This document shows, in pieces, positions 3,659 to 60,849 of a stretch of 64,000 nucleotides of DNA (the stretch's first letter is position 1; every line of letters begins with the position of its first letter). The position numbers were made by a program, and so were the translations under genes. The stretch lies in IMG/VR virus record IMGVR_UViG_2597490325_000001, positions 64,001 through 128,000 of that record, one strand, 5' to 3'. The notes under the pieces are model-generated. The model searched no databases, was not told where the DNA came from, and saw only the letters and a program-made list of their open reading frames with translations. This DNA is from a virus. Lineage: Duplodnaviria; Caudoviricetes.

Positions 3659-3735
3659 CGGGGTGTAGCATAATAGGATAATGCACCGACCTTCTAAGTC
3701 GGCTTACGTGGGTTCGACTCCCTCCGTCCCGACCA
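3659..3735 (+). tRNA. tRNA-Arg(UCU)
   Basis: Anticodon arm CCGAC-CTTCTAA-GTCGG, GGTTCGACTCC T-arm, encoded CCA. Confidence 0.9.
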
Positions 3736-3746
3736 AATTAATTTAT

Positions 3747-3828
3747 GCGAATGTGGCGAAATTGGTAGACGCCCCAGATTTAGGTTCTGGTATCGAAAGG
3801 TGTGTGGGTTCGACTCCCTCCATTCGCA
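3747..3828 (+). tRNA. tRNA-Leu(UAG)
   Basis: GCGAATG/CATTCGC acceptor, CCAGA-TTTAGGT-TCTGG, long variable arm; CCA not encoded. Confidence 0.9.
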
Positions 3829-3837
3829 ATCTATTCT

Positions 3838-3925
3838 GTCTGCTTGTCCAAATTGGTAAAGGAAGGAGACTTAAAATCTCCCGGCTGTAACAGCCTTATG
3901 GGTTCGACTCCCTTAGCAGATACCA
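3838..3925 (+). tRNA. tRNA-Leu(UAA)
   Basis: GGAGA-CTTAAAA-TCTCC anticodon arm, variable arm GGCTG-taa-CAGCC, encoded CCA. Confidence 0.9.
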
Positions 3926-4222: not shown

Positions 4223-4750
4223 ATGAAAGACAAGATGCAAAAAATTTTAGATAATATTAAAAAAGATGAAAATGGCTGTTGGATATGGCAAAGGTCTTTA
4301 ACTGGTTCAGGATATGGTCAAATATTTGCTGAAGGTAGAAATCATTCAGTACATAAATATGTATTTGAATTAATTAATGGTAAAGTTCCAAATAAATACG
4401 TAGTTCGTCATAAATGCCATAATCGTAAATGCTGTAATCCAGATCATCTACTATCTGGAACAAATAAAGATAACTATCATGATTCTATTGAAGTATTTAA
4501 AAAAATTCATAAAAGTAAAAGACTTAAATGGATTATAAACGATGTTTCTTATCCTAATTCAAGAATTTCGTCTAAGATAACTAAACTTTCTCAGAGTATA
4601 ATTTGTAAGCATATGGATAAAGAAACTAGAATATTTGATTATGATAGTTATGCTAAAGCGTGTAAAATAGCCAATGTTGAACCTAAGAAGTTACCAACTC
4701 TTAAGACTCTCACTAAAGAGCAGAAGAAACTCATTGAGGATAATATGTAA
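4223..4750 (+). CDS. HNH homing endonuclease (free-standing, next to tRNA cluster)
   Basis: CWIWQ...GYG...VVRHKCHNRKCCNPDHL...TNKDN beta-beta-alpha-metal motif; early-type motif ATATATAAT at 4182. Confidence 0.85.
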   Translation: MKDKMQKILDNIKKDENGCWIWQRSLTGSGYGQIFAEGRNHSVHKYVFELINGKVPNKYVVRHKCHNRKCCNPDHLLSGTNKDNYHDSIEVFKKIHKSKRLKWIINDVSYPNSRISSKITKLSQSIICKHMDKETRIFDYDSYAKACKIANVEPKKLPTLKTLTKEQKKLIEDNM

Positions 4751-5530: not shown

Positions 5531-5965
5531 ATGTCTATTACAGTAAAAATTATGAATGACACTCACCCTAGACGTGGTGACGATAATATTTCATCAAGAT
5601 TTAAGCTTGTGCATATTCCTGATGGTGGTTCTTTTCAGATTAACCGCCCTCAAGCAAGAGACCTTAATGAAGATCTTTCAATAGATTCCCCATTAGTTGG
5701 TAGACCGGATTTAGGATATTGTACGTTATCTGTATTTGGTAGTGATGGTTCCGATTTAGGTGCATTACATGTCATTAATGGTAATATGTATGTAATGGAT
5801 AATGGTAAAACCATCTCTACATTTTGGGGATGTTCTTATCCTATTGACGACCCTAAGCTATCAGACCTCGAACCAATGGAAGTTAAAGAAGATAAAGTTC
5901 TAGATAAAAATAAATCTTTCATTACTCCTCTAGAGCATCAAGAGATTTTAAGATCTCGATTATAA
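5531..5965 (+). CDS. Hypothetical late-type protein
   Basis: AACA-N6-TAG at 5459, TAAGGA RBS, terminator near 5994. Confidence 0.7.
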   Translation: MSITVKIMNDTHPRRGDDNISSRFKLVHIPDGGSFQINRPQARDLNEDLSIDSPLVGRPDLGYCTLSVFGSDGSDLGALHVINGNMYVMDNGKTISTFWGCSYPIDDPKLSDLEPMEVKEDKVLDKNKSFITPLEHQEILRSRL

Positions 5966-6143
5966 GTATTAATATTTTAAATATTAAAAATAACCCATAT
6001 CCTTCCAAAGAGGGATATGGGAGTTTTATTACAAAATGTAGCGGCGGTATAAATAAGCATATATTATTACCATGAAGTAGCATAGGAAGCTGACATAATG
6101 ATTATTAATATCATTTAAACCGTACGGTAATGGGGTATATAAT

Positions 6144-7535: not shown

Positions 7536-7613
7536 GACTCGCTAGCTCAGTTGGTTAGTAGCGGATGACTGTTAATCATCAGGTCGCAGGTTCAAGCCCT
7601 GCGCGAGTCGCCA
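7536..7613 (+). tRNA. tRNA-Asn(GUU)
   Basis: GATGA-CTGTTAA-TCATC anticodon arm, GGTTCAAGCC T-arm, GCCA end. Confidence 0.92.
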
Positions 7614-22571: not shown

Positions 22572-24709
22572 ATGTTTATTAGAAAAATACTTACAGAAGA
22601 AACTCCTTTAGGGTTTGATATTAATCTAGTTATGGAAATGATAACTAGATCATATGAAATGGAGTTAAACGATTTTAAGAAAGGAACTATTGTTACATCA
22701 CTAATGCTAAGTAATCTACTTATGAGTAATTTTGATTTTCTAATCTACAATACTACAGATAACTACCTTGGGTTTGATGAAATTTTGATAAATGAATCTG
22801 AAGGGTCAGTTGTTTTAGGGCGAACTAAGCATAATTCTATAGAATTAAGTGTACCATCGCCATTTGAGGATGAAGGAACAGTTCCTATTCAAGATCTATA
22901 TAAAAATGGGCTTGATAAGTATACCATGTTTACTCATACTCAGATAAACTATTTTAGTATCCACATAAATGAAACTAGTGGAAGATCACATAAACCTCTT
23001 CCAAATGTAAAATATAGGGTGGCATTGAAGACTATGATGATAGATTTAATTACTAGCTTTAAGATGCGTTTTCCAAAAGTTATCAAAGATATATAATTTT
23101 ATTAGATAATTGGAGGGAGTTATTAATTGATGGTTATTATAAGAAATTGTCTAGACACCAAAATACTACATTACGCCGCTACTTTTGGCAGTGAAATCTA
23201 TATTGAATTAACACAGATTCTTAGACAGGAAATATCAAAATCTTGCATTTCTTTGTTAAAGATAGGGGATATATGTAAACCCGATGCAGAATATGGTAAT
23301 ATAAAATATTATATGAATATAGGCCAAGTATATGGTCATAATTGTTTAAGTAATTTAGATTATACTAATATCCATGTACTAGATAAAGATTGCCCTATAT
23401 TCACTAAAAGAGAACATCAAGATTTAGTAGAATATATTCATGAAAATCTAGTCAATCAGTACACTAGTATGATGGCATATGAAGATATTCTTGATGTCTT
23501 CTCAAATATCTATTTTATCTTCAATAAAACAAATCAAGGTTCTTTCCTATGAGAACTGTGCAAGCTAGATGGTTTCGCATCAAAGAAAAGGATGGTACAT
23601 TTAGGGAAGTAATTTTCTCTGATTCAACTATCAGAGATGCTTTGAGGCGTTTATATAAAAAACATATCAATATCCTGCTTCCGAGTAAAATTTCTTTAAA
23701 AATTGGCTTATTTGATCATCCACCAATAAAAACTTTATTCTTTGTTAATTCACCATACATAAATCTCAATTATATAAACACGCTTATTGTTCATCCATTA
23801 GACTTTAATGTAAAAGATCTAACTGGAAATGAACTTAGTGAATTGATCTCATTAAATCATGTTCTTCATGTTAGATTTTTCTCTGACGTAAATAGGGATC
23901 ATTCAGTGATATATAATTATTATGAAGGTTTTAATATTAATAAGAATCGGAGCAATTATTGATGTTTGAGACACTAACTGGTCTAGTCGGTTATCATAAT
24001 AATTTACTTAAAGATAAAACCGACAAAGAAAAATCATATATAAAAAAAGTCGTCAAAAAGACGATGGTGGAAGACCTAAATTATGTCTCTTTTAAATTAT
24101 TCGTAAATAAACGTTCGCTAAATCGTTTTATCAATGATAATGGAATTTCTCCTCCAGATATCTTTGATTTAAATTTACTCTTAATGGAAAATTCTAAGGA
24201 TTTCTTAGAAAATATCATTAAGAAGGATTATAGTACATTAGTACTGGATGTGACTTCATGGAATTTACTATGTATTAATAAATCATTTCTTTATAATGAA
24301 AACCCCTATATAAAAATAAGAGCTACATATGCGTGTGATACAAGTAAAAATCCGGTATGAACTTCTGTCATATGGAATATATAGAGAAATCATTTCAGAT
24401 CACTATTTTAAAAATCATATAGAAGCATTTAATCTCCTTATTCCAAATAACCAACCATTTAAAGAAATCCCTAATCATTTCGGATTTACTAAAAGTATAC
24501 TTTCTCTTTCTGATCTAAAATATGAATACCATTTATTGGATTACGTTACAAATCGTAGTCCTCTTGATGAAAACAAAGTATTGAAACAAATGTATATGGT
24601 CGAATATACTAAATCTTCCCTAAAGCTTAGCAAATCTAGTTACCGATATATTCCTGTCATTAATTTAGACTATAATATTTCAATGATGATTCCACACTAC
24701 GCTATATAG
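22572..24709 (+). CDS. Operon of five AT-rich hypothetical ORFs (22572-23096, 23127-23552, 23549-23962, 23959-24360, 24329-24709)
   Basis: ATATATTAT at 22529; overlapping starts and stops. Confidence 0.6.
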
Positions 24710-24793
24710 GATACTAGGAGAAACTTTAAAGTTTCTCCTTTATATCTTTATTTTTATTGTACATTTTTTTAGTTAATTGAACAAAGGTGTATT

Positions 24794-25279
24794 ATGAATA
24801 TATCACAATTTAATAGTATAGATACTCCTACAATTGGTAGTTTAGATGATCATTATAAGACAACAGCCGTTAAACCTCTAGTAGTTGTACCTATAAAGAA
24901 ATCCCCCACCGAAATATCTGATGTACTTAGTATAAAAGATAATAAGCTAGTTATAGATTTAGAAATGTTAGATGGTATAGAAATTAAGGGTTCTAGCCCA
25001 AAAGTAATGAAATTTTTATCAACTCTTATTCTTGAATCTGATAAGAATATTTTCATCAATTCTAATTTTGATGATAAAGATAATCCTAAGAAGTATAAAG
25101 TATGGTTTAACACTGAAGACCCTAAAACTGGTAAACGTGTTGATAATGAAGATTTAGAAAATTATGCTGAATTACAGTATGCCTTAGAAAAAAATAGCAT
25201 ATCTGACTTTTCTTATAAAAATGAATGCTCATGTGGTAAATGTGGGGGTAATGATGCCAGCAGTAGTGAGGTTGGGTGA
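24794..25279 (+). CDS. Hypothetical protein with a C-terminal CSCGKC motif
   Basis: AAGGTG RBS; TACA-N6-TAG promoter variant at 24760. Confidence 0.6.
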   Translation: MNISQFNSIDTPTIGSLDDHYKTTAVKPLVVVPIKKSPTEISDVLSIKDNKLVIDLEMLDGIEIKGSSPKVMKFLSTLILESDKNIFINSNFDDKDNPKKYKVWFNTEDPKTGKRVDNEDLENYAELQYALEKNSISDFSYKNECSCGKCGGNDASSSEVG

Positions 25280-25541
25280 TCAAGATACTGGACACGGATG
25301 CTATCCACCTAGAGCAAATAATGGTTCTTGTAGTACTGTATTTGCCGATGGTAAACTAATACATCGTAAAGGAGACTCATGGAATGTGCATTCATGCCCT
25401 GATAATCCTCCACACGATGCAACTCTTTCAGGTGGTAGTGGAACTGTAATGGTAGAAGGTGCCGCTGTAGGTAGAGTTGGTGATAGTGTATCATGTGGCG
25501 GTGCCGCTGCACAAGGTTCTTCAACTGTTTTTGCAGGTTAA
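25254..25541 (+). CDS. PAAR-repeat spike tip protein
   Basis: MPAVVRLGDQDTGHGCYPP...STVFADG..HRKGD..H.C...H...GTVMVEG..VGRVGD..SCG...GSSTVFAG. Confidence 0.92.
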   Translation: MPAVVRLGDQDTGHGCYPPRANNGSCSTVFADGKLIHRKGDSWNVHSCPDNPPHDATLSGGSGTVMVEGAAVGRVGDSVSCGGAAAQGSSTVFAG

Positions 25542-25544
25542 TTT

Positions 25545-26174
25545 ATGATTTTATCTAATGAAGAGTATTATATACATACTCAAACACGAAATATTTCCTT
25601 TATTAAAATGGCTAGGTATTTAAAAGATAGAGGTATTGAAAACTATTCCTTTATGCTTAAGCTATATGATAAAGATTTAATGAAAGTTAATCCACATGCA
25701 AGAAATCTTTCTCCCATAACTAAGAGTAAGATTATTGTAGAGTGTACACGAAATCCTTGGTATGCCTTAAGGGAATGCTATATGATTTCTGCTCCTGGTG
25801 GTTCAAGAGTATTCTTTGAGCTTCATCCAGGTAACTTAGCTATTATATGGGCTATTCTTTTAAGTCTATCTGTTATAGTATTACTTCCTCGACAGAGAGG
25901 TAAAACTATCTCTATAGCTACTATATTATCTTACATCTTTTACTTTGGTACCAAAAACACTGCAATGTTATTTGGTAATAAGTCTGGTAAAGATGCAGAG
26001 AACAACTTAGCACGTTTTAAAGATATTACTTTAGGTTTACCTTCTTATTTGAGAGACACATTTGTTGACTCCAAAGACACTGATAACGTAACTCAGATAG
26101 TATCAGTTAAACGTAATAACAAAATTGACATACATGGTCAGCCAGTTTCTGAAGAAGCTGCTGATAAACAGGGT
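25545..26174 (+). CDS. Terminase large subunit, exon 1
   Basis: ECTRNPWY and Walker A LPRQRGKT; ends ...ADKQG at the 5' splice site. Confidence 0.9.
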
Positions 26175-26356
26175 TAACCTACGGCTCTGTATAAATTCCG
26201 TTAGATGACTGGAACCCCTTCAATCTTAAGGCAACCAGCAGTAATGAAAAACCGTATCTTGCATATAATTAAAGATATATTATTTAGGTGATAGAATAAT
26301 AAAGATAATGAAATCTTTATTATATTAACCCATTAATTATAGCGAGGTATTATCCT

Positions 26357-27937
26357 ATGGCTAGCATCAATTCTCTGAAAGCGAACTCTTCTCAGCTGTC
26401 TTTTTCTATGATCCGTAAAATGTTCGAAGATAAAGGTATCTTCGAAACCATCAAAGAAATCGGCGCGGAATTCCTCGATCCAGAAAACATCGCGGAACAT
26501 CGCTACATCAAGTTTAATAATACGAAATACGCTGGCGTGGTTCATCCAAGCCAGAAACGCGCATTAGCTCTTTTGAGCTTACTGGACGTGGTATCAGATG
26601 AAAATCTGGATAAAACGTTTAAACGGAACTCTCCGGTTTCCCGTGTTTTAAGCGGGTACACGTTCTATTCATATCTTTTAGAAAACATTGATCCTGAAGT
26701 CAAATCGAAAGAAATTGACGTCAAGACCATTCTGAAAGACTATGTCAAGGCAGTTTCCCTTGATTTCAAAGGTATGTCGAATTCTGCAATTCGTACAGTC
26801 CTTGAAAACACGGCTAAAAATCAAAGTGATCATATTAAAGCACTTTGGGATTTGGCGGTTAAAGATAATAAGCTGGCAGATAAAGACTACCTGAAAGAAG
26901 AAGATCTTCGTCAGGTTCGGTCTCATCTGAGTCACGTAAATGAAGCTTTGCGTGACAACTTTGTCGGCCCTATTATGGCTAACCGGAAAATTACCGACAT
27001 GGACAAACTGGTACAAGTTTGGGCTATCGGCGAACTGGCTGATGAAATCCTTAAGGAGTGCGAATCCTTAACTGATCTCACTCTGCTGTCTTCCTCCTAT
27101 CCAATCAAAAAGTATTTCGAAGATATTAATACTAAATCAGAGGCTAAACCAATGAAACACACTGCTACCACCGTACCATCTACCGCCGAATCATCATCAT
27201 CATCTGTTACGGCTGCATCAGCTAAAAAAGATGATATCCTGACTGAAACACAGGGTATCATTAAAGACGTTAAAACCGTCATTGCTGGTGAACAGCCAGC
27301 TACTTTAGAAGTTCCTGAAGTAGCAAGCACTGTCGTTAAAGAAGAAGTGGTTACTACCACTAAAACTACTACGACCGCAATTAACGATGACGAAGCGGCT
27401 GAAGCATTAGCTGATCTTGCTGGTCTGTTTGGCGAAGTCGAAATCAGCCTGGTCTTCAGTAAAGAAGACAAAAAGCTGAGCGACATCATTTCCAAAGAAG
27501 TAACAACTCTGGAAAACCGTCTGAAAGAAGTTACTCATTTGGGTAACACTCTGGACGGCGCTTTTGCTTCTATCCGTACTGCCAGCAGCTTGTCCGGTCG
27601 TATTGAAGGACTGCGTGATCTGGTCTTCCTGCTGTCAAAAGCTAAAACTGAAGACAACATGTCAGACAAAGCGAAAGCAAGTCTGCAAACTGTTATCGAT
27701 AAGCTGAACGAAGTTATTACTGTTTCACACGCATATCAGATGGCTACCAACGCCAAAGATAAGCGCAGTATCTTCCGTAAAGCAATCGATCTGGTCATCG
27801 GCTTCTTTGCTGGTATCATAAATGCGTTCATGCTCGTTATTCGTAAACTCATCGATTTCTTCTTTAACTGGAATTCTGATGATTACAAAAAACGTGCTCC
27901 GAGCCGTGATCCGGTAGTTGAACCTGTAGGCGTTTAA
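26357..27937 (+). CDS. Intron-nested 526-aa non-nuclease protein with a C-terminal hydrophobic/amphipathic helix
   Basis: ATATATTAT at 26275, GAGGT RBS, host-like codon bias; no HNH, GIY-YIG, LAGLIDADG or PD-(D/E)XK motif seen. Confidence 0.85.
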   Translation: MASINSLKANSSQLSFSMIRKMFEDKGIFETIKEIGAEFLDPENIAEHRYIKFNNTKYAGVVHPSQKRALALLSLLDVVSDENLDKTFKRNSPVSRVLSGYTFYSYLLENIDPEVKSKEIDVKTILKDYVKAVSLDFKGMSNSAIRTVLENTAKNQSDHIKALWDLAVKDNKLADKDYLKEEDLRQVRSHLSHVNEALRDNFVGPIMANRKITDMDKLVQVWAIGELADEILKECESLTDLTLLSSSYPIKKYFEDINTKSEAKPMKHTATTVPSTAESSSSSVTAASAKKDDILTETQGIIKDVKTVIAGEQPATLEVPEVASTVVKEEVVTTTKTTTTAINDDEAAEALADLAGLFGEVEISLVFSKEDKKLSDIISKEVTTLENRLKEVTHLGNTLDGAFASIRTASSLSGRIEGLRDLVFLLSKAKTEDNMSDKAKASLQTVIDKLNEVITVSHAYQMATNAKDKRSIFRKAIDLVIGFFAGIINAFMLVIRKLIDFFFNWNSDDYKKRAPSRDPVVEPVGV

Positions 27938-27958
27938 GCTACAGGCGCTAGCCATAAT

Positions 27959-27988
27959 AAAAAACAGGGTAAGCCCTGTTTTTTTTTT
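27959..27988 (+). terminator. Intrinsic terminator inside the terminase intron
   Basis: AAAAAACAGGG-taag-CCCTG followed by T10. Confidence 0.75.
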
Positions 27989-28127
27989 CATTATTCAACG
28001 ACTATTTGTAGAAATCAAGCGATTTCGAAATGCGGAACATAGAAAAAATCTATGAAGATATAGTCTAAACTTATAGGAAACTATAAGCCCTATGGTAACT
28101 ATTTAGCGAATAGTTATAAATGTAAAG

Positions 28128-29543
28128 CGTGGTATGTCAATCCCCTTCCTATGGGAAGATGAGTTAGCATTCTTAAAATATAATAAAACTATCTTTGAAG
28201 CAGCAACTCCGGCAGTAAACCGTATATCGGATATTGCAGAAGCTAATGGTGCTCCACATGCTAAAATTATTTCCACTACCCCTAATAACTTAGACTCACC
28301 AGCTGGTGCTTATTGTAAAAGTACTATTGATAGCGCCTGTGTATTTATTGAAGAAATGTATGATTGGTCTCGTGAAGAAGTATTAGCCTATATTCACGAT
28401 AACTCAATAAACGACTTCTTATATATTAAATATACGTGGAAACAACTTGGTTACAGTGATGATTGGTATGAGAAAGAATGTCGTTCTCTGCAGTTTAACT
28501 GGTTAACCATCAACCGTGAAATCAACTTAGTATGGACTAAATCTACTGATAACTCTGTATTTAACGAAGAACAGTTAATGACTATATCTAAACTTCTTAA
28601 GAATGAGTCAGAAAACTTATTAATCGAAGTAACCCGTTATGATGCAGTAGTAGAAGAAGTAGTTAAGAATACTCTTAAAGTTGAATGTTTTGATGAAATG
28701 AATCCTGATAAATGTTACTTTATAGGAGTGGACGTTGCAGGTGGTCTTGATCAAGATAACTCTACATTTGTAATGACTGACCCTACAGATAATTACAGAC
28801 CAGTAGCATTCTTCAAAAACCCTAAAATTGATACTACTTTGTATTCAAGATTTTTGACTAAGTTTATCAAAGAGTATTTCCCTAAATCAATTCTCTTTAT
28901 AGAAAATAACTCATACGGTCGTGGTTTAATCACTAACTTACTTGATACTATTCCTAAAAATATTTATTATGACTATAGTTTAACTGATAAAAACAAGACT
29001 GCTAGAAACCCTGCTACTAAAACAGATAATATCCGTTGGGGGATAAACACTAACGAAACTACCCGTCAGTTAATGATGGATGTATTAGTTGAATTAGTAA
29101 ATGATACCCCACAGATACTAGCCTATCCAGACCTATATGATGATCTACGTGGTTTAATTTATAATAAACGTGGTAAGATTGAGCATGAGCAAGGTATGCA
29201 TGATGATACCTTAATGGCCTATTTAGTATTACGTTATGCGGTTCAGTATGGTAACAACATTACTAAATTCTTGAGAGAAATTCGAGAAGGTAAAGTAAAT
29301 AATGGAGTTACTAAACTTAAGAACGTAGTGAATAATAATATAGATGACCCTGCAGTAGCAAAAGGTGCAAATATCAATATTTTAGATGTAGCAACTATGG
29401 TTTCTAACGGGATGAGTGTAGAAGAAGCTATGGCTATTATAACTGGTAAAGTCGATAAAGGCGGTACTAAGATCAATAATGCTGCAGTAAATACTATGCT
29501 AAATAAAAATTTAAATTATAATTCAAAATTAAAAGGTAAATAG
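28128..29543 (+). CDS. Terminase large subunit, exon 2 (spliced product 681 aa)
   Basis: RGMSIPFLWEDE Walker B, ISTTPN, nuclease motifs GVDVAGG..QDNS, IENNSYG and HDDTLMA. Confidence 0.92.
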   Translation, partial: RGMSIPFLWEDELAFLKYNKTIFEAATPAVNRISDIAEANGAPHAKIISTTPNNLDSPAGAYCKSTIDSACVFIEEMYDWSREEVLAYIHDNSINDFLYIKYTWKQLGYSDDWYEKECRSLQFNWLTINREINLVWTKSTDNSVFNEEQLMTISKLLKNESENLLIEVTRYDAVVEEVVKNTLKVECFDEMNPDKCYFIGVDVAGGLDQDNSTFVMTDPTDNYRPVAFFKNPKIDTTLYSRFLTKFIKEYFPKSILFIENNSYGRGLITNLLDTIPKNIYYDYSLTDKNKTARNPATKTDNIRWGINTNETTRQLMMDVLVELVNDTPQILAYPDLYDDLRGLIYNKRGKIEHEQGMHDDTLMAYLVLRYAVQYGNNITKFLREIREGKVNNGVTKLKNVVNNNIDDPAVAKGANINILDVATMVSNGMSVEEAMAIITGKVDKGGTKINNAAVNTMLNKNLNYNSKLKGK

Positions 29544-29544
29544 T

Positions 29545-30276
29545 ATGGAATTGGATTTTGTAAGAGAATCGTATTCTACATTAGATGGAGCTTTAGAAGA
29601 TTTCTTATCTAGTAAAGCTGATTTATTTAGTTCCGCTCCAAGGAATGATTTCCTTGAAGGATTAATGTCTAGAATTGATTCAGCTAAACTTTCTGAAGAT
29701 CTTGATTCAGATGATAAAGATGAATTACAAGGTTTAGAAAGTGCATTATACCATAAAATCATTTCTCACTTCAGAAAGGATTATTCTATTAATGAAGAAG
29801 AAATTGCTAATATTTTTGAGAATGCTCAAATTACCAGATTCTATATTCAGAAGATTTATGATCTTTTTTATACTGGTAAACGAGAAATTCTTATTAATTT
29901 CCTAGCTAACTTTATTTTTGATAATAAAGGTGATTTTGCTAAGCAATATAAAGCTCAAGTAAGTAAAAAAGATTATGAATATTACTCTCTTCGTAAAGAT
30001 CTTTCATTGTCTAAACCTGAGTATTATTGTATTATCATTAAAGCTGTAGAAATTGTCAATGATATTTTGGAAGATACCGAGAGTTTTGACTTTAAAGAAG
30101 TACTCCTTGGTAGTGATTTAGAAGTTGAAGATGTAGAAACCGTCTATTCGTTATTTGATAGCAGTTCTGATAACTTCTCTAGATTTATCGATACTTTGAT
30201 TGGAAGTATTAACCAAGACCGAATTTCTCTAGAAGTTAAAGATAAATTAGGTAATATGCTTAAAAATGCTAAGTAA
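29545..30276 (+). CDS. Hypothetical protein
   Basis: Starts immediately after the terminase stop. Confidence 0.7.
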   Translation: MELDFVRESYSTLDGALEDFLSSKADLFSSAPRNDFLEGLMSRIDSAKLSEDLDSDDKDELQGLESALYHKIISHFRKDYSINEEEIANIFENAQITRFYIQKIYDLFYTGKREILINFLANFIFDNKGDFAKQYKAQVSKKDYEYYSLRKDLSLSKPEYYCIIIKAVEIVNDILEDTESFDFKEVLLGSDLEVEDVETVYSLFDSSSDNFSRFIDTLIGSINQDRISLEVKDKLGNMLKNAK

Positions 30277-30312
30277 ATAACAAAAAGTTAGATCACACAA
30301 GGATACCGAATA

Positions 30313-31119
30313 ATGTCTAATGTACCTACTCAAGAACAAATCGCTGGTTCAGTTAATGCTGTAGAACAGAAAGTGAATGATATCCCTTCTCTGGACAGTA
30401 ATATGCAAGAAGCAGCTGATGAAGTAACTAAATTAGGTAAAGAGTATACCGCTACAATTGCAAATGCAGCGCGTCATACTGCTGAAATTCTGTCAGAGTA
30501 TATTGCTTCTCTTCGTAAAGAAGCTACGAATGCTATTAATGTACTCACTGCAAAAAATGCTGAAGAAGGTTTAACTGATGCTGAATCTATGGATTTAGGT
30601 GCTGCTATTATTACTAAGCAGAACATTCTAGAATTGGATACTCAGCAACCTCTTTATCTTTTTGCCGCTCAGAATAAAGTTAGTATTGAAATCGCTAGTT
30701 GTAAACCGCGAGTACTACAAGCGTACGAAGTATTTAAACATTACTGCCGTACACGAAAACTGCGTCATGCCGACATGATGGTAGCTTTTGATATGGTAGA
30801 TAAAGATTCCGAAGAATTCCATAAGTCTAAAATGGTATTTGCTTATTATGTCTTTAAGATGTTTGAGCAGAATAAAAAGACTATGGATAATCGTATTCTT
30901 TATATGCATCTTACCACTCAGGTATTACTGACTGCATTTGCTACTAATGCATCAACTCAATTCATCGAGAAGTTTGTCAAAACTATCTATCCAGAAGTAT
31001 TTACTGAAGAAATTTTCAATAAAGCTATGGATACTACTGCATTGGACTCAGAGGGAGAACTCTCTGATAAGGTTGAAGTAGATGAAGGTGAAGCTGATTC
31101 ATCTTATGTAGCCCAGTAA
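30313..31119 (+). CDS. Hypothetical late-type protein
   Basis: AACA-N6-TAG at 30279, AAGGA RBS. Confidence 0.7.
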   Translation: MSNVPTQEQIAGSVNAVEQKVNDIPSLDSNMQEAADEVTKLGKEYTATIANAARHTAEILSEYIASLRKEATNAINVLTAKNAEEGLTDAESMDLGAAIITKQNILELDTQQPLYLFAAQNKVSIEIASCKPRVLQAYEVFKHYCRTRKLRHADMMVAFDMVDKDSEEFHKSKMVFAYYVFKMFEQNKKTMDNRILYMHLTTQVLLTAFATNASTQFIEKFVKTIYPEVFTEEIFNKAMDTTALDSEGELSDKVEVDEGEADSSYVAQ

Positions 31120-46561: not shown

Positions 46562-46911
46562 CATTTACATTCATCATAGTTCGTTAATCTATGACCGCTT
46601 TTTAAGCTGCTATATATTGCTATATAGATTAGACTATATCTTAAGTACATAACCTATTATGTACCTCTCCCCATTTCGCTTTAAAGGATTTTATAATTGA
46701 AGCCATTCCACTTCAATAACCTACCACTTGGCGCTACTCTACTTGCTTATTCACTTAGATTTCGGTCTAAGCTATGCTTTCGATAGTCGTTGAACCTTAT
46801 TCAATAATTTTTATATTATTTTAAATAATATAAAAATTCTTAAATCTTGGATGCTGATTGTCTCAATGAGAGTTCCAGCAGTTAAAGGAGTTTATAGTGA
46901 GCATCAAGTTT
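46562..46911 (-). mobile_element. Group I intron (350 nt, ORF-less) in DNA polymerase
   Basis: P1 AGUGAGU/GCUCACU with U.G; core TGCTGGAA, AATCAGCA, TTCAACGACTA, GCGAAATGGGGAG, AAGATATAGTC; terminal G at 46562; frame restored. Confidence 0.9.
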
Positions 46912-48172
46912 ACTCACTTTTCATATTAACTCTAGGGCGATCTTCTGGAAGTACACCAGCCGCCTTAGTTAACTTATAGAAAACATCACCGATGAAATTA
47001 GTAATAAAGTAAGTAATTACAGCACCGATACTTACACGTTTTTCTTTAGTTAATTTATCAGGGTCTTCACCTGTTGAATCACAAATGTACTCAATAAATG
47101 GACGAATGTACAAGAATGTTGAGTCAGTATCTGATAACAGTACTGTTTTTCTCATCATTGCTTTTACTTTAGTAGTTTTATTTGAGAATGGATAAGAATA
47201 GAATACGAATGCTTTCATCAATTCATTCAATTCTTGAAGACTTTCTTTAATATCTTCTGGCGGTTTCTCAAAATTAAAATAGTTTTCTACAATTAGATTA
47301 CTTGTTACAAATTCTTCAATAGAAGGTAATTTTAAAAACTCCATTAAGTTATTCTTATAATAGAGCATTTCTCTAACTGAGGCAGTTTGACTTTTAACCA
47401 CCTTAATTACCATGTTTCTAATTTCGTCTGTAACTAGGAAGGTACATTTACCAAGTAGATGCTCTACAACATCATTAGTTGTTAAATCATCATTTAAAGT
47501 AAATTCTGGATCTTCCTCAAGATTACAGATATTATACATATACTGAGTAAGTTCATGTTCAGTATCAAATGTAAAGTTACCAGACATAAAGGCTTCAAAG
47601 CCTAAAATAGCGGAAATGATAATTTGCTGTCCGGTATAAGTAATTGATGGGCCGAGGTCAGGGTTAAAGAATATGAATGAACTTGCCCCGAATGCACCAT
47701 AATAGCTGTTAGCTAGAATTTTAAAGATGAGCTGCTTGATGTCAAGGAAATTATAAAGAGATTTATCAACATCGTTGATATGTTGAAGCATTTCCTTTTT
47801 AGTTACTTTACGAGCTTTAAGTAGGAACTCAAGGAACATTCCTGGAAGGTTTTCTTTCTTATTACGGTTATAGAAAAGAGTATTAAAGCCAGTAATGATT
47901 AATCGTTTATCTTCTGGAAGAACTTTATTGTAGACGACAATATCGGCTACTGTTGCGTCCGAATAAGTTTCCTGAACGTTATTATAGACTACTCCGTTAC
48001 GATTCTTCCAATCCTGCAGATAATCGCTTTTTAGTCTATTCCAATCAACTTTTTTAGCTTTTTTTCTTCCTAATGATGTAAGTTTTTCCTTTAGATCATT
48101 AAAAAAGAAGTCAAACGCTTTCTTTTCATTTTTAGTTAAACTTTCATAAGTAATCAATGTTATACACCTCAT
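46912..48172 (-). CDS. Family B DNA polymerase C-terminal subunit, exon 1 (likely TTG start at 48157)
   Basis: Motif B KILANSYYG and motif C SDTDS; GAGGTG SD lies upstream of TTG at 48157. Confidence 0.9.
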
Positions 48173-59436: not shown

Positions 59437-60849
59437 AAATTTTGATAGTTTGTATATAGATTTCTAAAAAATGGGAGGTTCCTTAACCATAAAATAGTGA
59501 TATATTATTTAAATAGTACTTATCTAATATAGAGAACTTTTTATGCGTAGGAAAATTGATTTACCTTTCATTAAAGCTTTTATTAGCGATAAAAAACCTG
59601 ATTACGAATATATATCAGGAAAAGTAGAAAATCAAAAATCATTTATTATGATTAGACATAAACCATGTGGTCATGAATATGAAACACAAATTAAAGGGTT
59701 TATCTCTGAGAGAGAAGCAAATAAAGGCGAATGTAAGCTTTGTAATCCAGTTAAAACTTTCAAACGCACTTATAAATTATCTGAAAAAGATATCATTAAT
59801 CGTTTTAAAGAAGTAACTGGAGACGAGTATGTATACCAATCTGGATTTATTAATTCAAAATCTAAGATGCTAATTTTACATACGAAATGCAATACTACAT
59901 TTAATGTAACATCGCATATGTTTTTCGGCACTAAACAGACTCGATGCCCTAATTGCGCTAATCAAAAGAGAAAATCTCATCAATCGATAAATAGAGTTGA
60001 CAATTATCTAGAAAAACTTCTTGTAGATAATCTTTTAGATAAAGACTATTATTGGTTGGAGGAGTATACGAGTGATAATAAATACAAACATCTGATATTC
60101 CATAAAGTTTGTGGGGAAAGATCTCTCATTAGACCTAATGATATTCAACAAGGTTATTTACCTTGTACTTGTGAAGGTAGTAAATACGAAGTTAGATTTA
60201 AAAATCTACTTATTAAGTATAAAATACCTTTTGTAAGAGAATTCAAGTTAGGTAATTCAATGCGAGTAGATTTTGTAGTTCAATGTAAATCTTCTAAAAT
60301 CTTTATTGAAATTGATGGCGAATTTCATGGTCTTCCAGAAAAGAAACCGGTAGATAAGCGTAAAGAAGATTTAATTAAAGAACTATTCCCAAATGATTAC
60401 TTCTTTAGAGTAAATTATAATGATGATTTTGAAAATATCGTTAAAGAAATAAAGTTTAATTTAGATGAAATATAAATTATATTGCCATCTTTAAACTCCT
60501 TTAATTGCTGGAACACCCTTAGAGCCATATAAACTACAACATAATCTGAAAAGATAAGTGTGAATGTTTAAAAATTATATGGATTGGGAAATCAGCAGCG
60601 AAGCTTATACTATTAAACAACTTATAAAGGATTATAAGTGGTATAAGTGTGTTCAACGACTATCGAAAGTATCTATACATTGTATAGAGTAAATGAGTAG
60701 AGTAGTGCCAAGTGGTAGGTATCATAATGACAATAGTTATGAATAATTCCTTTAAAGCGAAATGGGGAGCAATGGATTGAAGATATAGTCTGGGCTATAT
60801 GGAAACATATAGAAGGTTCTATTTGACGAATAGAATCGTAACATAACTG
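59437..60849 (+). mobile_element. Group I intron (1413 nt) inside the catalytic DFDG^D motif, with an endonuclease gene in the P1 loop
   Basis: P1 GAUGGU/GCCAUC (60484-60489); core TTGCTGGAA, AATCAGCAG, GTTCAACGACTA, GCGAAATGGGGAG, GAAGATATAGTC; terminal G at 60849. Confidence 0.92.
59543..60475 (+). CDS. Intron-encoded homing endonuclease (zinc-ribbon repeats plus Vsr/DUF559-like nuclease)
   Basis: Three HxxC...CxxC-type repeats; RVDF...IFIEIDGEFH; ATATATTAT at 59500. Confidence 0.8.
   Translation: MRRKIDLPFIKAFISDKKPDYEYISGKVENQKSFIMIRHKPCGHEYETQIKGFISEREANKGECKLCNPVKTFKRTYKLSEKDIINRFKEVTGDEYVYQSGFINSKSKMLILHTKCNTTFNVTSHMFFGTKQTRCPNCANQKRKSHQSINRVDNYLEKLLVDNLLDKDYYWLEEYTSDNKYKHLIFHKVCGERSLIRPNDIQQGYLPCTCEGSKYEVRFKNLLIKYKIPFVREFKLGNSMRVDFVVQCKSSKIFIEIDGEFHGLPEKKPVDKRKEDLIKELFPNDYFFRVNYNDDFENIVKEIKFNLDEI

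Follow-up and report, generated by a model that had tools for sequence, protein, structure and literature searches.

In phages, group I introns are usually taken either to lack cargo or to carry homing endonucleases. The window (the whole stretch of 64,000 nucleotides of phage DNA that was analysed) raises the question of what a 526-aa open reading frame (ORF) is doing inside its terminase large subunit gene (terL), and whether the intervening sequence can act as a ribozyme while holding it. The first-pass annotation had proposed that positions 26175-28127 are a group I intron in whose P6 loop (L6) a complete transcription unit, coding for something other than an endonuclease, is nested.

The interrupted terminase gene and its ribozyme

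The features of the gene and of the intron are given below in the order of the sequence.

25545-26174, + strand: terL exon 1, 210 codons, ending ...ADKQG, with Walker A LPRQRGKT (phrog_32359 match, BpSp alignment)
26168-26190, + strand: P1, formed by exon end ACAGGGU (26168-74) and guide GCUCUGU (26184-90), with U.G at the 5' splice site (sequence, folding)
26175-28127, + strand: group I intron, 1953 nt, with a ribozyme core of ~220 nt and an L6 insert of ~1.7 kb
26175-26251, + strand: ribozyme 5' half, with P1 3' strand, P3, P4, P5, P4', P6 5' strand GUAAUG (26241-46) and AAAAA (26247-51)
27989-28127, + strand: ribozyme 3' half, with P6', J6/7-P7, P7.1, P3', P8, P7', P9, P9.1 and terminal G 28127
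28128-29543, + strand: terL exon 2, starting RGMSIPFLWEDE, with Walker B and the nuclease domain (reading frame, PHROGs, BpSp alignment)

Exon 1 matches the terminase large subunit family phrog_32359 in PHROGs (E 6e-127), and the reading frame is maintained when 26174 is ligated to 28128. The claim that excision of 26175-28127 restores TerL was borne out by Bacillus phage BpSp, whose TerL is uninterrupted (ADKLG-RGLTIPIIWYDE at this point) and is colinear, with zero gap, with the joined protein. The insertion point is the codon junction ADKxG|RG, immediately upstream of Walker B. The intron itself, its precise borders and the placement of the insert in L6 were likewise upheld.

From the sequence and from comparison with phage AR9, P1, the U.G pair, the omega-G and P3-P9.1 could all be identified, the 5' half being placed by visual inspection and by aligning it with AR9 terL intron 1. 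P1 covaries between the two phages (exon CUG with guide CAG in AR9, exon CAG with guide CUG here). The core pairings are P3 (UUCCG x CGGAA), P4 (UGaCUGG x CCAGCA), P5 (CCUU x AAGG) and P6 (GUAAUG 26241-46 x CAUUAU 27989-94), and they are accompanied by UCAACGACUA at 27995-28004, GAAGAUAUAGUCU, P9, P9.1 and the terminal G at 28127. A whole-window Rfam search at the gathering level did not report the intron. In a local search, the covariance model RF00028 matched the 3' half below its curated threshold (27924-28087, E 5.6e-6, 32.6 bits against a cut-off of 50), while the model, split by the 1.7-kb L6 insert, left the 5' half unmatched. The 3' half is identical to that of a related viral contig (L001) at 131 of 139 positions, whereas the flanking genes diverge at 34-54% of their synonymous sites. 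Furthermore, all 42 cells of P9 and P9.1 are paired across the three sequences compared, with four pairs changed on both sides, and only 7 of 500 shuffles of this three-sequence set score as high. It is considered probable that a functional group I intron occupies 26175-28127, in the terL gene of an AR9/PBS1-like giant phage, and has a cargo unit in its P6 loop.

Unspliced RNA contigs run across the terminator and each of the two splice sites, and DNA carry-over is a possible source of them. The contigs of four RNA runs hold no spliced joint, contigs being an assembly product in which rare forms are lost.

Occupancy of the site differs among relatives. The terL gene of AR9 is annotated as a join of five pieces and gives four RF00028 matches (70.6-92.7 bits). 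Its intron 1 (L004, 3614 to about 3906) lies at the same codon junction, starts GGGT|TAAC, ends before CGTGGT, is ORF-less and has a short P6 hairpin. It resembles the window intron in insertion point, in a similar 5' half and in the covarying P1, and it differs by a large insertion between the P7 element and P3' (~83 nt unaligned to the Rfam model), as well as by its full RF00028 match at 82.3 bits, where the window intron scores 32.6 bits and with its 3' half alone. A terL intron at this site is absent from Goe21 (in which the CDS is uninterrupted), BpSp, L007, L008 and L009. The search for empty alleles at the terminase locus, proposed at the outset, thus yielded both an ORF-less intron at the same site and intron-less genes. 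A DNA pattern scan of metagenome contigs returned a single contig (L010) with a related ORF-less intron, which has a short P6 and lies at a locus other than terL. L001 shares the layout of the window (the ORF, then the 3' half of the intron and exon 2) on a contig that lacks the 5' part of the intron; it was the sole locus found when viral contigs were searched with the 526-aa ORF. Viral contigs searched with terL exon 1, and metagenome contigs searched with the 526-aa ORF family, gave no related locus. Since the introns of AR9 and L010 have a short P6, the 1.7 kb of L6 content is probably an addition, and the notion of the ribozyme as a landing pad fits these two introns.

The proposed expression unit in the P6 loop

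Within L6, the following features make up the unit.

26254-26350, + strand: predicted long-range helix over the ribosome-binding site (RBS), 26254-62 x 26342-50 with inner pairs (folding)
26271-26290, + strand: early-type (virion RNA polymerase) promoter motif AAAGATATATTAT-TTAGGT-G, predicted +1 at G 26290 (genome motif count, AR9 consensus)
26296-26323, + strand: cargo mRNA leader, A/U hairpin (folding)
26344-26347, + strand: RBS GAGG, 9 nt 5' of the ATG (sequence)
26357-27937, + strand: 526-aa cargo ORF, with helical N-terminal part (residues 1-262), Thr/Ser-rich linker (263-345), conserved helical C-terminal part and hydrophobic helix (477-495)
27923-27945, + strand: hairpin across the stop codon, also present in L001 notwithstanding an indel (L001 comparison, folding)
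27959-27988, + strand: predicted intrinsic terminator, 11-pair stem 27959-27984 and T run 27984-88 (terminator scan, folding)

In the promoter motif, ATATATTAT begins at 26275, and 6 nt separate it from G 26290. The pattern ATATATTAT-N5-TG, of which the L6 motif is one instance, occurs at 39 sites in the genome against 1.3 expected, and 38 of these have an ORF of at least 50 aa within 400 nt downstream. The geometry agrees with the early consensus of AR9, given as AAATATATATTAT-(6N)-G, with transcription in relatives of AR9 starting 6 nt past the element (PMC5312081). The late motif AACA-N6-T[AG] does not occur in 26175-26357. At the other end, the terminator is the strongest terminator-like site in the 4.8 kb of 25000-29800 and the sole one there on the + strand; it folds at z -3.55. 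Its 5' arm AAACAGGGT repeats the final 9 nt of exon 1, and its T run (27984-88) doubles as the 3' strand of a P6 extension. The anatomy of promoter, RBS, ORF and terminator described in the first-pass annotation was upheld.

Access to the RBS is predicted to depend on where transcription begins. In the predicted folds, the helix covering the RBS (-24.9 kcal/mol, z -3.63) forms in the long precursor and leaves the RBS nearly free in RNA starting at 26290; it is predicted only for transcripts begun upstream of the internal promoter. Of the earlier picture of a nested early gene, perhaps membrane-associated, the promoter motif and the hydrophobic helix stand as features of the sequence, while independent early transcription and membrane location, like splicing, are inferred. 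As regards RNA, summed word depth over the ORF is far above that over the exons in X1 and X4, contig depth being a quantity that cannot rank genes. The X13 contigs cover 26357-27726 and a 167-nt piece of exon 2, the uncovered parts carrying no weight.

The composition of the ORF sets it apart from its surroundings (GC 0.42 against about 0.30-0.33 in the flanks). Its GC3 of 0.404, compared with a genome mean of 0.233, ranks second among 249 ORFs, and CTG accounts for 52% of its Leu codons (genome mean 9%). By its share of optimal codons, counted with an E. coli-type list, it ranks tenth of 249, in the company of the genes for the tail sheath and the major head protein. The phage's own head, sheath and ATPase genes have the same bias. 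The codon bias that had been called host-like is real, but the phage's genes for the major head protein and the tail sheath share it, and it is better read as a mark of high expression than of host origin.

The 526-aa protein and competing explanations

The cargo is a real, selected protein, with a dN/dS of 0.195 against L001. Diversifying selection or cassette swapping of the ORF was considered and rejected, its omega being 0.195 and its dS of 0.97 falling in the range of the neighbouring genes (0.46-0.97). Six homologues (68-98% identity) were found among 5.8 billion proteins, and a profile search of 1.84 billion representatives returned two matches, both close relatives; tblastn against 50,697 phage records, including those of the AR9/PBS1-like group, found no homologue. 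No family in Pfam, PHROGs, NCBIfam, the PADLOC defence models or PDB sequences matched the protein, nor did the HNH, GIY-YIG, LAGLIDADG, other nuclease or reverse transcriptase, or transposase families. The hydrophobic helix near the C-terminus, which had been noted at first sight, was corroborated as the sole such helix (best 19-residue Kyte-Doolittle window 2.35, at 477-495). An HNH-like spacing (H48...N54...H63) was examined and rejected as unconserved, His48 and His63 being replaced in P0004, where Q and D occur. The protein has a single Cys and shows no conserved catalytic constellation of His, Asp or Cys. AlphaFold2 models reached a pLDDT of 38.4 for the whole protein and 36.7 for residues 1-265, values too low for fold assignment, and every structure row in the ESM Atlas fell below TM 0.5. 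In all available sequence tests the protein looks like a non-endonuclease, a label that is provisional because both structure models are unusable.

Several other explanations of the locus can be weighed against these observations. One is that the ORF encodes a structural or assembly protein made in large amounts (a scaffold-like, internal or decoration protein) and lies in an intron by chance. This would suit a codon usage that groups it with the tail sheath, the major head protein and virion proteins, a largely helical chain with a flexible linker, and a gene position with the tail sheath gene on one side and the head, PAAR and terminase genes on the other. This explanation is nevertheless regarded as decidedly unlikely, given an early-type promoter, the lack of the late motif in 26175-26357, the C-terminal hydrophobic anchor, the lack of tblastn homologues in AR9/PBS1-like or other deposited phages, and an hhalign probability of 0.8% in the profile comparison with gp197 of BpSp, the 540-aa structural protein adjoining its terL. 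A cryptic new-type homing endonuclease or mobility factor that moves the intron is very unlikely. Pfam, PHROGs, NCBIfam and PDB gave no nuclease or DNA-binding family match, the His pair is unconserved and only one Cys is present, and a length of 526 aa, a Thr-rich linker and a membrane-type helix also speak against it. Homing endonucleases are typically expressed at a low level, whereas the cargo has high-expression codon usage. Elsewhere the same genome has two HNH_3 genes and, within another intron, an ORF with a zinc finger that possibly codes for an endonuclease. On the other side, an ORF looped out from a peripheral helix occupies the usual seat of intron homing endonuclease genes, the intron is patchy (present in AR9 and here, absent from Goe21, BpSp, L007, L008 and L009), the structure models give no usable fold, and a hidden HNH is reported from a phage insertion element (PMC11855218).

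The codon bias, GC content and CTG preference of the ORF might also mark foreign origin, that is, recent capture of a host gene. This is highly improbable in view of the lack of any bacterial homologue in the two protein searches described above, the same bias in the phage's own head, sheath and ATPase genes, and a synonymous divergence from L001 that resembles that of the neighbours. Scarcely credible is a locus without splicing, where one TerL chain of 210 aa and another of 469 aa, begun at ATG 28134, are translated separately and what looks like a ribozyme is a relic. An in-frame ATG is indeed the third codon of exon 2, and the RNA contigs lack a joint. Yet no good RBS precedes 28134, the Met is unconserved (Leu in BpSp and, as read from DNA, Cys in AR9), and Walker A and Walker B would end up on different chains; moreover, the 3' half is conserved far beyond synonymous sites, with compensatory changes, and exon and guide covary with AR9.

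Proposed working and known systems

The cargo is most likely an abundant early accessory protein with its C-terminal helix anchored in the inner membrane; its use in host take-over or in the exclusion of competing phages is a guess, rated below even odds. The P6 loop of this lineage would have gained a self-contained unit of early-type promoter, leader, RBS, 526-aa ORF and intrinsic terminator. Early in infection, the injected polymerase would initiate at G 26290. The resulting RNA lacks the 5' half of the ribozyme and is proposed to be unable to splice for that reason; with its RBS open and its end at the terminator, it would serve as an abundant monocistronic mRNA. Late in infection, transcripts running through terL exon 1 would carry an additional strand (26254-62) that pairs with the RBS, so that ribosomes would, as proposed, be excluded from the intron. 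The late polymerase would pass the terminator, P6 would close across 1.7 kb (GUAAUGAAAAA x UUUUUCAUUAU), and the ribozyme would then ligate the exons into a 681-codon terL mRNA. An awkward point is that the intron-internal terminator must be read through to make terL. A structural or assembly protein, too, would be compatible with this codon usage and with a place among the head and packaging genes.

A more far-reaching interpretation, rated unlikely, would make the P6 loop a protected cargo slot, the intron and its cargo a single regulated unit whose fate the promoter decides, and the cargo a new abundant early membrane-anchored effector. From the internal early promoter, the RBS would be open and the RNA would terminate, while in the late terL precursor the RBS would be paired and the terminator read through. 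The T run of the terminator would close P6, and the 9-nt copy of the P1 substrate in the 5' arm could bind the guide. In such a slot, imprecise deletion would kill the ribozyme and terL, and the cargo would thereby be shielded from loss.

In AR9, an early gene lying within a late gene's group I intron has been described before, and only the cargo is unusual here. In the part of the AR9 description that deals with this locus, g190, with its own early promoter, lies in an intron of the late gene g189 (PMC5312081). The likeness is close (same phage group, and a late gene whose group I intron encloses an early-promoter gene), but g190 is an HNH homing endonuclease of 225 aa with an AP2 domain, in the gene for a virion RNA polymerase beta subunit, whereas the window cargo, of 526 aa, has a membrane-type helix and belongs to no known family, and the interrupted gene is terL. 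In its treatment of intron cargo, a 2014 review names homing endonucleases and IStron transposases only (PMC3984707), and an open-access keyword search found no phage group I intron in print with cargo that is neither endonuclease nor transposase. The text of PMC4848604, a paper on gene and promoter expression, contains neither "intron" nor "terminase". Here, a selected gene with high-expression codon usage lies in the intron of a packaging gene, with no sign of a role in intron mobility, and the locus suggests that ribozyme loops can serve as safe insertion sites for accessory genes of giant phages. The RNA layout offers a testable case of promoter-dependent control of translation and termination around a ribozyme. 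With relatives in a handful of phages only and capsid-like codon usage, the 526-aa protein is a promising place to look for a new early function.

Three other systems offer partial parallels. In the T4 td intron, the I-TevI ORF is looped out from the P6 region and has an internal promoter, and a hairpin hides its RBS in transcripts started upstream, which resembles the layout seen or predicted for the window intron; I-TevI is a GIY-YIG homing endonuclease served by a late promoter, whereas the window intron has an early-type promoter and no recognisable nuclease. The IStron CdISt1 of Clostridioides difficile differs in carrying an IS605-type transposase at its 3' end, which serves mobility; IStrons are marked by an IS200/IS605 transposase in the intron, and no transposase family matched the window cargo. 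The morons of lambdoid phages are independently expressed units of promoter, gene and terminator with a composition unlike that of their neighbours. The window unit resembles them in having promoter and terminator motifs of its own and a composition unlike its flanks, but morons sit between genes, whereas this unit lies inside the ribozyme loop of an essential gene.

Terminase exons and the intervening ribozyme

The large terminase gene (terL) of this 262,391-bp record (32.5% G+C) is read in two pieces, and the features of the locus are as follows (window positions):

25221-25541, +, PAAR-motif protein gene (PF05488, E 1.5e-9), ending 3 nt upstream of the terL start
25545-26174, +, terL exon 1, ending ...ADKQG
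26175-28127, +, almost certainly a group I intron
26357-27937, +, cargo ORF (526 aa)
27959-27984, +, terminator-like site
28128 onwards, +, terL exon 2

The PAAR-motif gene overlaps a preceding 161-aa ORF, directly before which lies a late-type motif (AACA-N6-TA, 24780).

In PHROGs searches, exon 1 matched the terminase family phrog_32359 end to end (E 6e-127) and exon 2 matched phrog_2; the best relatives of exon 2 are PBS1/AR9-like giant Bacillus phages (Goe21, 38%; BpSp, 36%). Yersinia phage phiR1-37 is named as the closest relative of AR9 in one report (PMC5312081). Translation from 28128 gives RGMSIPFLWEDE..., and on the uninterrupted 657-aa TerL of BpSp the second piece starts exactly where the first stops (ADKLG-RGLTIPIIWYDE in BpSp, ADKQG-RGMSIPFLWEDE here). 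This fixes the intron borders to the single base, and the gapless colinearity bears out the first-pass annotation, according to which removal of 26175-28127 rejoins the terminase.

The search with group I models proposed there succeeded in part. At the Rfam curated threshold, only another intron (46610-47009, -) was reported in the whole window and the terL intron was not, while a local search placed the Rfam group I intron model RF00028 on its 3' half (27924-28087; 32.6 bits, E 5.6e-6, cut-off 50), aligning J6/7-P7, P3', P8, P7' and P9. The 5' half was assigned from sequence, not by a covariance model match. P1 pairs ACAGGGU (26168-74) with GCUCUGU (26184-90), leaving U.G at the splice site, and is also the minimum-energy fold. 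P3 (UUCCG with CGGAA), P4 (UGaCUGG with CCAGCA), P5 (CCUU with AAGG) and P6 (GUAAUG, 26241-46, with CAUUAU, 27989-94; extendable by flanking AAAAA and UUUUU) follow, and the last intron base is G 28127. Since the P6 strands flank the ORF unit, the cargo sits in L6, as had been claimed.

Comparison of terminase loci, likewise suggested earlier, yielded both empty alleles (no terL intron in Goe21 or BpSp) and an ORF-less one. In AR9, the terL annotation (L004, 3011-6212) joins five segments; the gene has four introns in all and four RF00028 matches (70.6-92.7 bits). Its intron 1 follows ...CTGGGT, starts TAAC... and precedes an exon starting CGTGGT, a junction identical to that of the window; it is ORF-less, and its P6 hairpin is short. 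The 5' halves of the two introns can be aligned, and P1 covaries (exon CUG with guide CAG in AR9, exon CAG with guide CUG in the window). Among further relatives, the terL locus L007 carries its intron (5638-5996) 12 codons downstream of the window's junction, and L008 and L009, which have none at that junction, carry one about 50 codons on. Around Walker B, three distinct insertion points fall within about 15 codons (AR9 introns 1 and 2, L007). Thus, the Walker B region of TerL is a repeated intron target, and the intron at the window's site is scattered among relatives.

A related viral contig (L001, 4,975 bp) holds the C-terminal 305 codons of the cargo ORF, then the intron 3' half, then exon 2. 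The two 3' halves differ at 8 of 139 nt, as against synonymous differences of 34-54% in exon 2 and two downstream genes. In P9 and P9.1 of the window, L001 and a metagenome contig (L010), 42 of 42 cells are paired and four pairs are changed on both sides, albeit among three sequences only; this score was reached by 7 of 500 shuffles, and slid controls gave 0-1. One ORF-less intron of L010 and the window intron have an identical 37-nt P7'-P9 stretch (three free positions allowed), and the L010 intron shows compensatory changes in P9.1. Taken together, the conserved 3' half, the P1 covariation and the paired P9/P9.1 argue that the ribozyme is under selection.

No splice joint was present in the contigs of four RNA-library runs, which keep the commonest path and may include DNA. 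Contigs of runs X1 (24700-26585) and X4 (24700-26636) cross the 5' splice site unspliced, others (X1, 27454-30400; X4, 27923-30400) cross the terminator and 3' splice site unspliced, and a single metatranscriptome contig spans the entire 5.7 kb with 67 differences. Members of this phage group can be grown in culture, and RNA data are available.

Expression of the cargo

The nested ORF is likely to be an autonomous expression unit, and the early-type motif, RBS and terminator ascribed to it earlier were all recovered. The motif ATATATTAT-N5-TG occurs at 39 genome sites, whereas 1.3 are expected from 20 first-order Markov simulations (maximum 5), and 38 of the 39 precede an ORF of at least 50 aa within 400 nt on the same strand. 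The cargo copy at 26275, with its flank AAAGATATATTAT-TTAGGT-G, has one mismatch to the AR9 early consensus AAATATATATTAT-(6N)-G; in the relatives studied, transcription starts 6 nt past the promoter element (both from PMC5312081). The late-type motif AACA-N6-T[AG] is absent from 26175-26357. The RBS, GAGG, lies 9 nt upstream of the cargo ATG, and the terminator-like site (11 pairs, then a T run) is the sole + strand one in 25000-29800, with none of 200 shuffles equally stable.

Folding of 26249-26360 predicts a long helix (26254-62 with 26342-50; -24.9 kcal/mol, z -3.63) covering the RBS, while RNA starting at 26290 would lack the upstream strand and leave the RBS nearly free. Such predicted covering in upstream-started RNA recalls I-TevI of phage T4. 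The 5' arm of the terminator, AAACAGGGT (27962-27970), repeats the 9 nt that close exon 1 (26166-26174), the P1 substrate, and has only three copies in 262 kb; the 3' arm GCCCTGT is one base off the guide GCTCTGT, and the T run also serves as 3' strand when P6 is extended. The repeated 9-mer may act as a decoy or a switch, may be left over from the unit's origin, or may be a chance match.

The codon bias described earlier is real, its host-like character less so. Cargo GC3 is 0.404 against 0.233 +/- 0.048 (rank 2/249), the optimal-codon share 0.628 against 0.436 +/- 0.085 (rank 10/249; optimal set of E. coli type), and 52% of Leu codons are CTG (genome mean 9%). This usage class is common to the phage's own major head protein, tail sheath, virion proteins and an ATPase gene with an early-type motif, and therefore marks high expression in the phage, not foreign origin. 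Similarly extreme usage is found in the genome at 63492-64535, 228349-229641 and 241918-243255, two with early-type promoter motifs; one encodes an ATPase (phrog_1297), and the other two products (347 and 445 aa) belong to no named family.

Nature of the cargo protein

The cargo is a real, constrained protein, changing faster than TerL. Six homologues (68-98% identity) were found among 5.8 billion clusters and two close representatives among 1.84 billion, with no second copy in the genome. Against L001, dN/dS is 0.195 (dS 0.97) for the cargo, 0.029 (dS 0.46) for terL and 0.048 and 0.106 for neighbours; the cargo is not under diversifying selection.

That the protein shows no recognisable nuclease or reverse transcriptase motif agrees with the searches, which gave no family in Pfam, PHROGs, NCBIfam or PADLOC, no sequence match in PDB and no lead in Atlas; it is probably not an endonuclease. 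Both structure models are helical throughout, but their confidence is too low for use (pLDDT 38.4 and 36.7). The charge is neutral to slightly acidic, with one Cys. The Thr/Ser-rich linker (263-345, variable) and C-terminal hydrophobic helix proposed earlier are both present, the C-terminal half being conserved. Only one hydrophobic segment is present (residues 477-495, Kyte-Doolittle 2.35, against 1.38 for the next best among windows that begin before residue 450); about 30 polar residues follow it, and no N-terminal signal-like segment was seen; if membrane-entering, the protein would be tail-anchored with its bulk in the cytoplasm. The earlier interpretation holds in part, an intron, an autonomous unit and a non-endonuclease cargo all being likely, while a membrane-associated early accessory function is a tentative guess.

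Other intron cargo and further introns

The AR9 intron gene g190, an early-promoter gene within the late gene g189, encodes an HNH/AP2 homing endonuclease (PMC5312081) and IStrons carry transposases (PMC3984707), whereas the terL cargo matches no family. Keyword searches of the open-access literature found no printed phage group I intron with cargo neither endonuclease nor transposase. Elsewhere in the genome (252480-253382; L011, 2981-3883), an ORF encodes 300 aa that include a treble-clef zinc finger (DUF4379, 27.4 bits) and a stretch resembling D-G-x-H-F-E-x-K. It is situated upstream of an RF00028 3'-half match (253291-253406) and overlaps it; the match in turn follows closely on a truncated DnaB-like ORF whose end reads ...AISGG (weak divDNAB match, below curated cut-off). 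This could be an endonuclease-bearing intron splitting a DnaB-like gene. Two HNH_3 domain genes (window 4349-4474, genome 68349-68474, 48.6 bits; genome 206481-206612, 26.1 bits) are possible free-standing homing endonucleases. L010 (11,199 bp) has five RF00028 matches in 11 kb, and beside introns related to the window's lie ORFs of 235 and 303 aa with N-termini GIY-YIG-like by eye. Beside g190, the zinc-finger ORF and these GIY-YIG-like ORFs, the terL cargo stands apart.

In all, at least five intron-like elements are present in the genome. The second window intron (46610-47009) is ORF-less with a full model match (63.4 bits), although the search of the whole genome did not list it, and RF00028 also matches at window 60454-60812 (+; genome 124454-124812; 44.1 bits) and genome 234911-235216 (69.8 bits). 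Four Rfam tRNA genes lie at window 3659-3922 and 7536-7610, three clustered and one apart.
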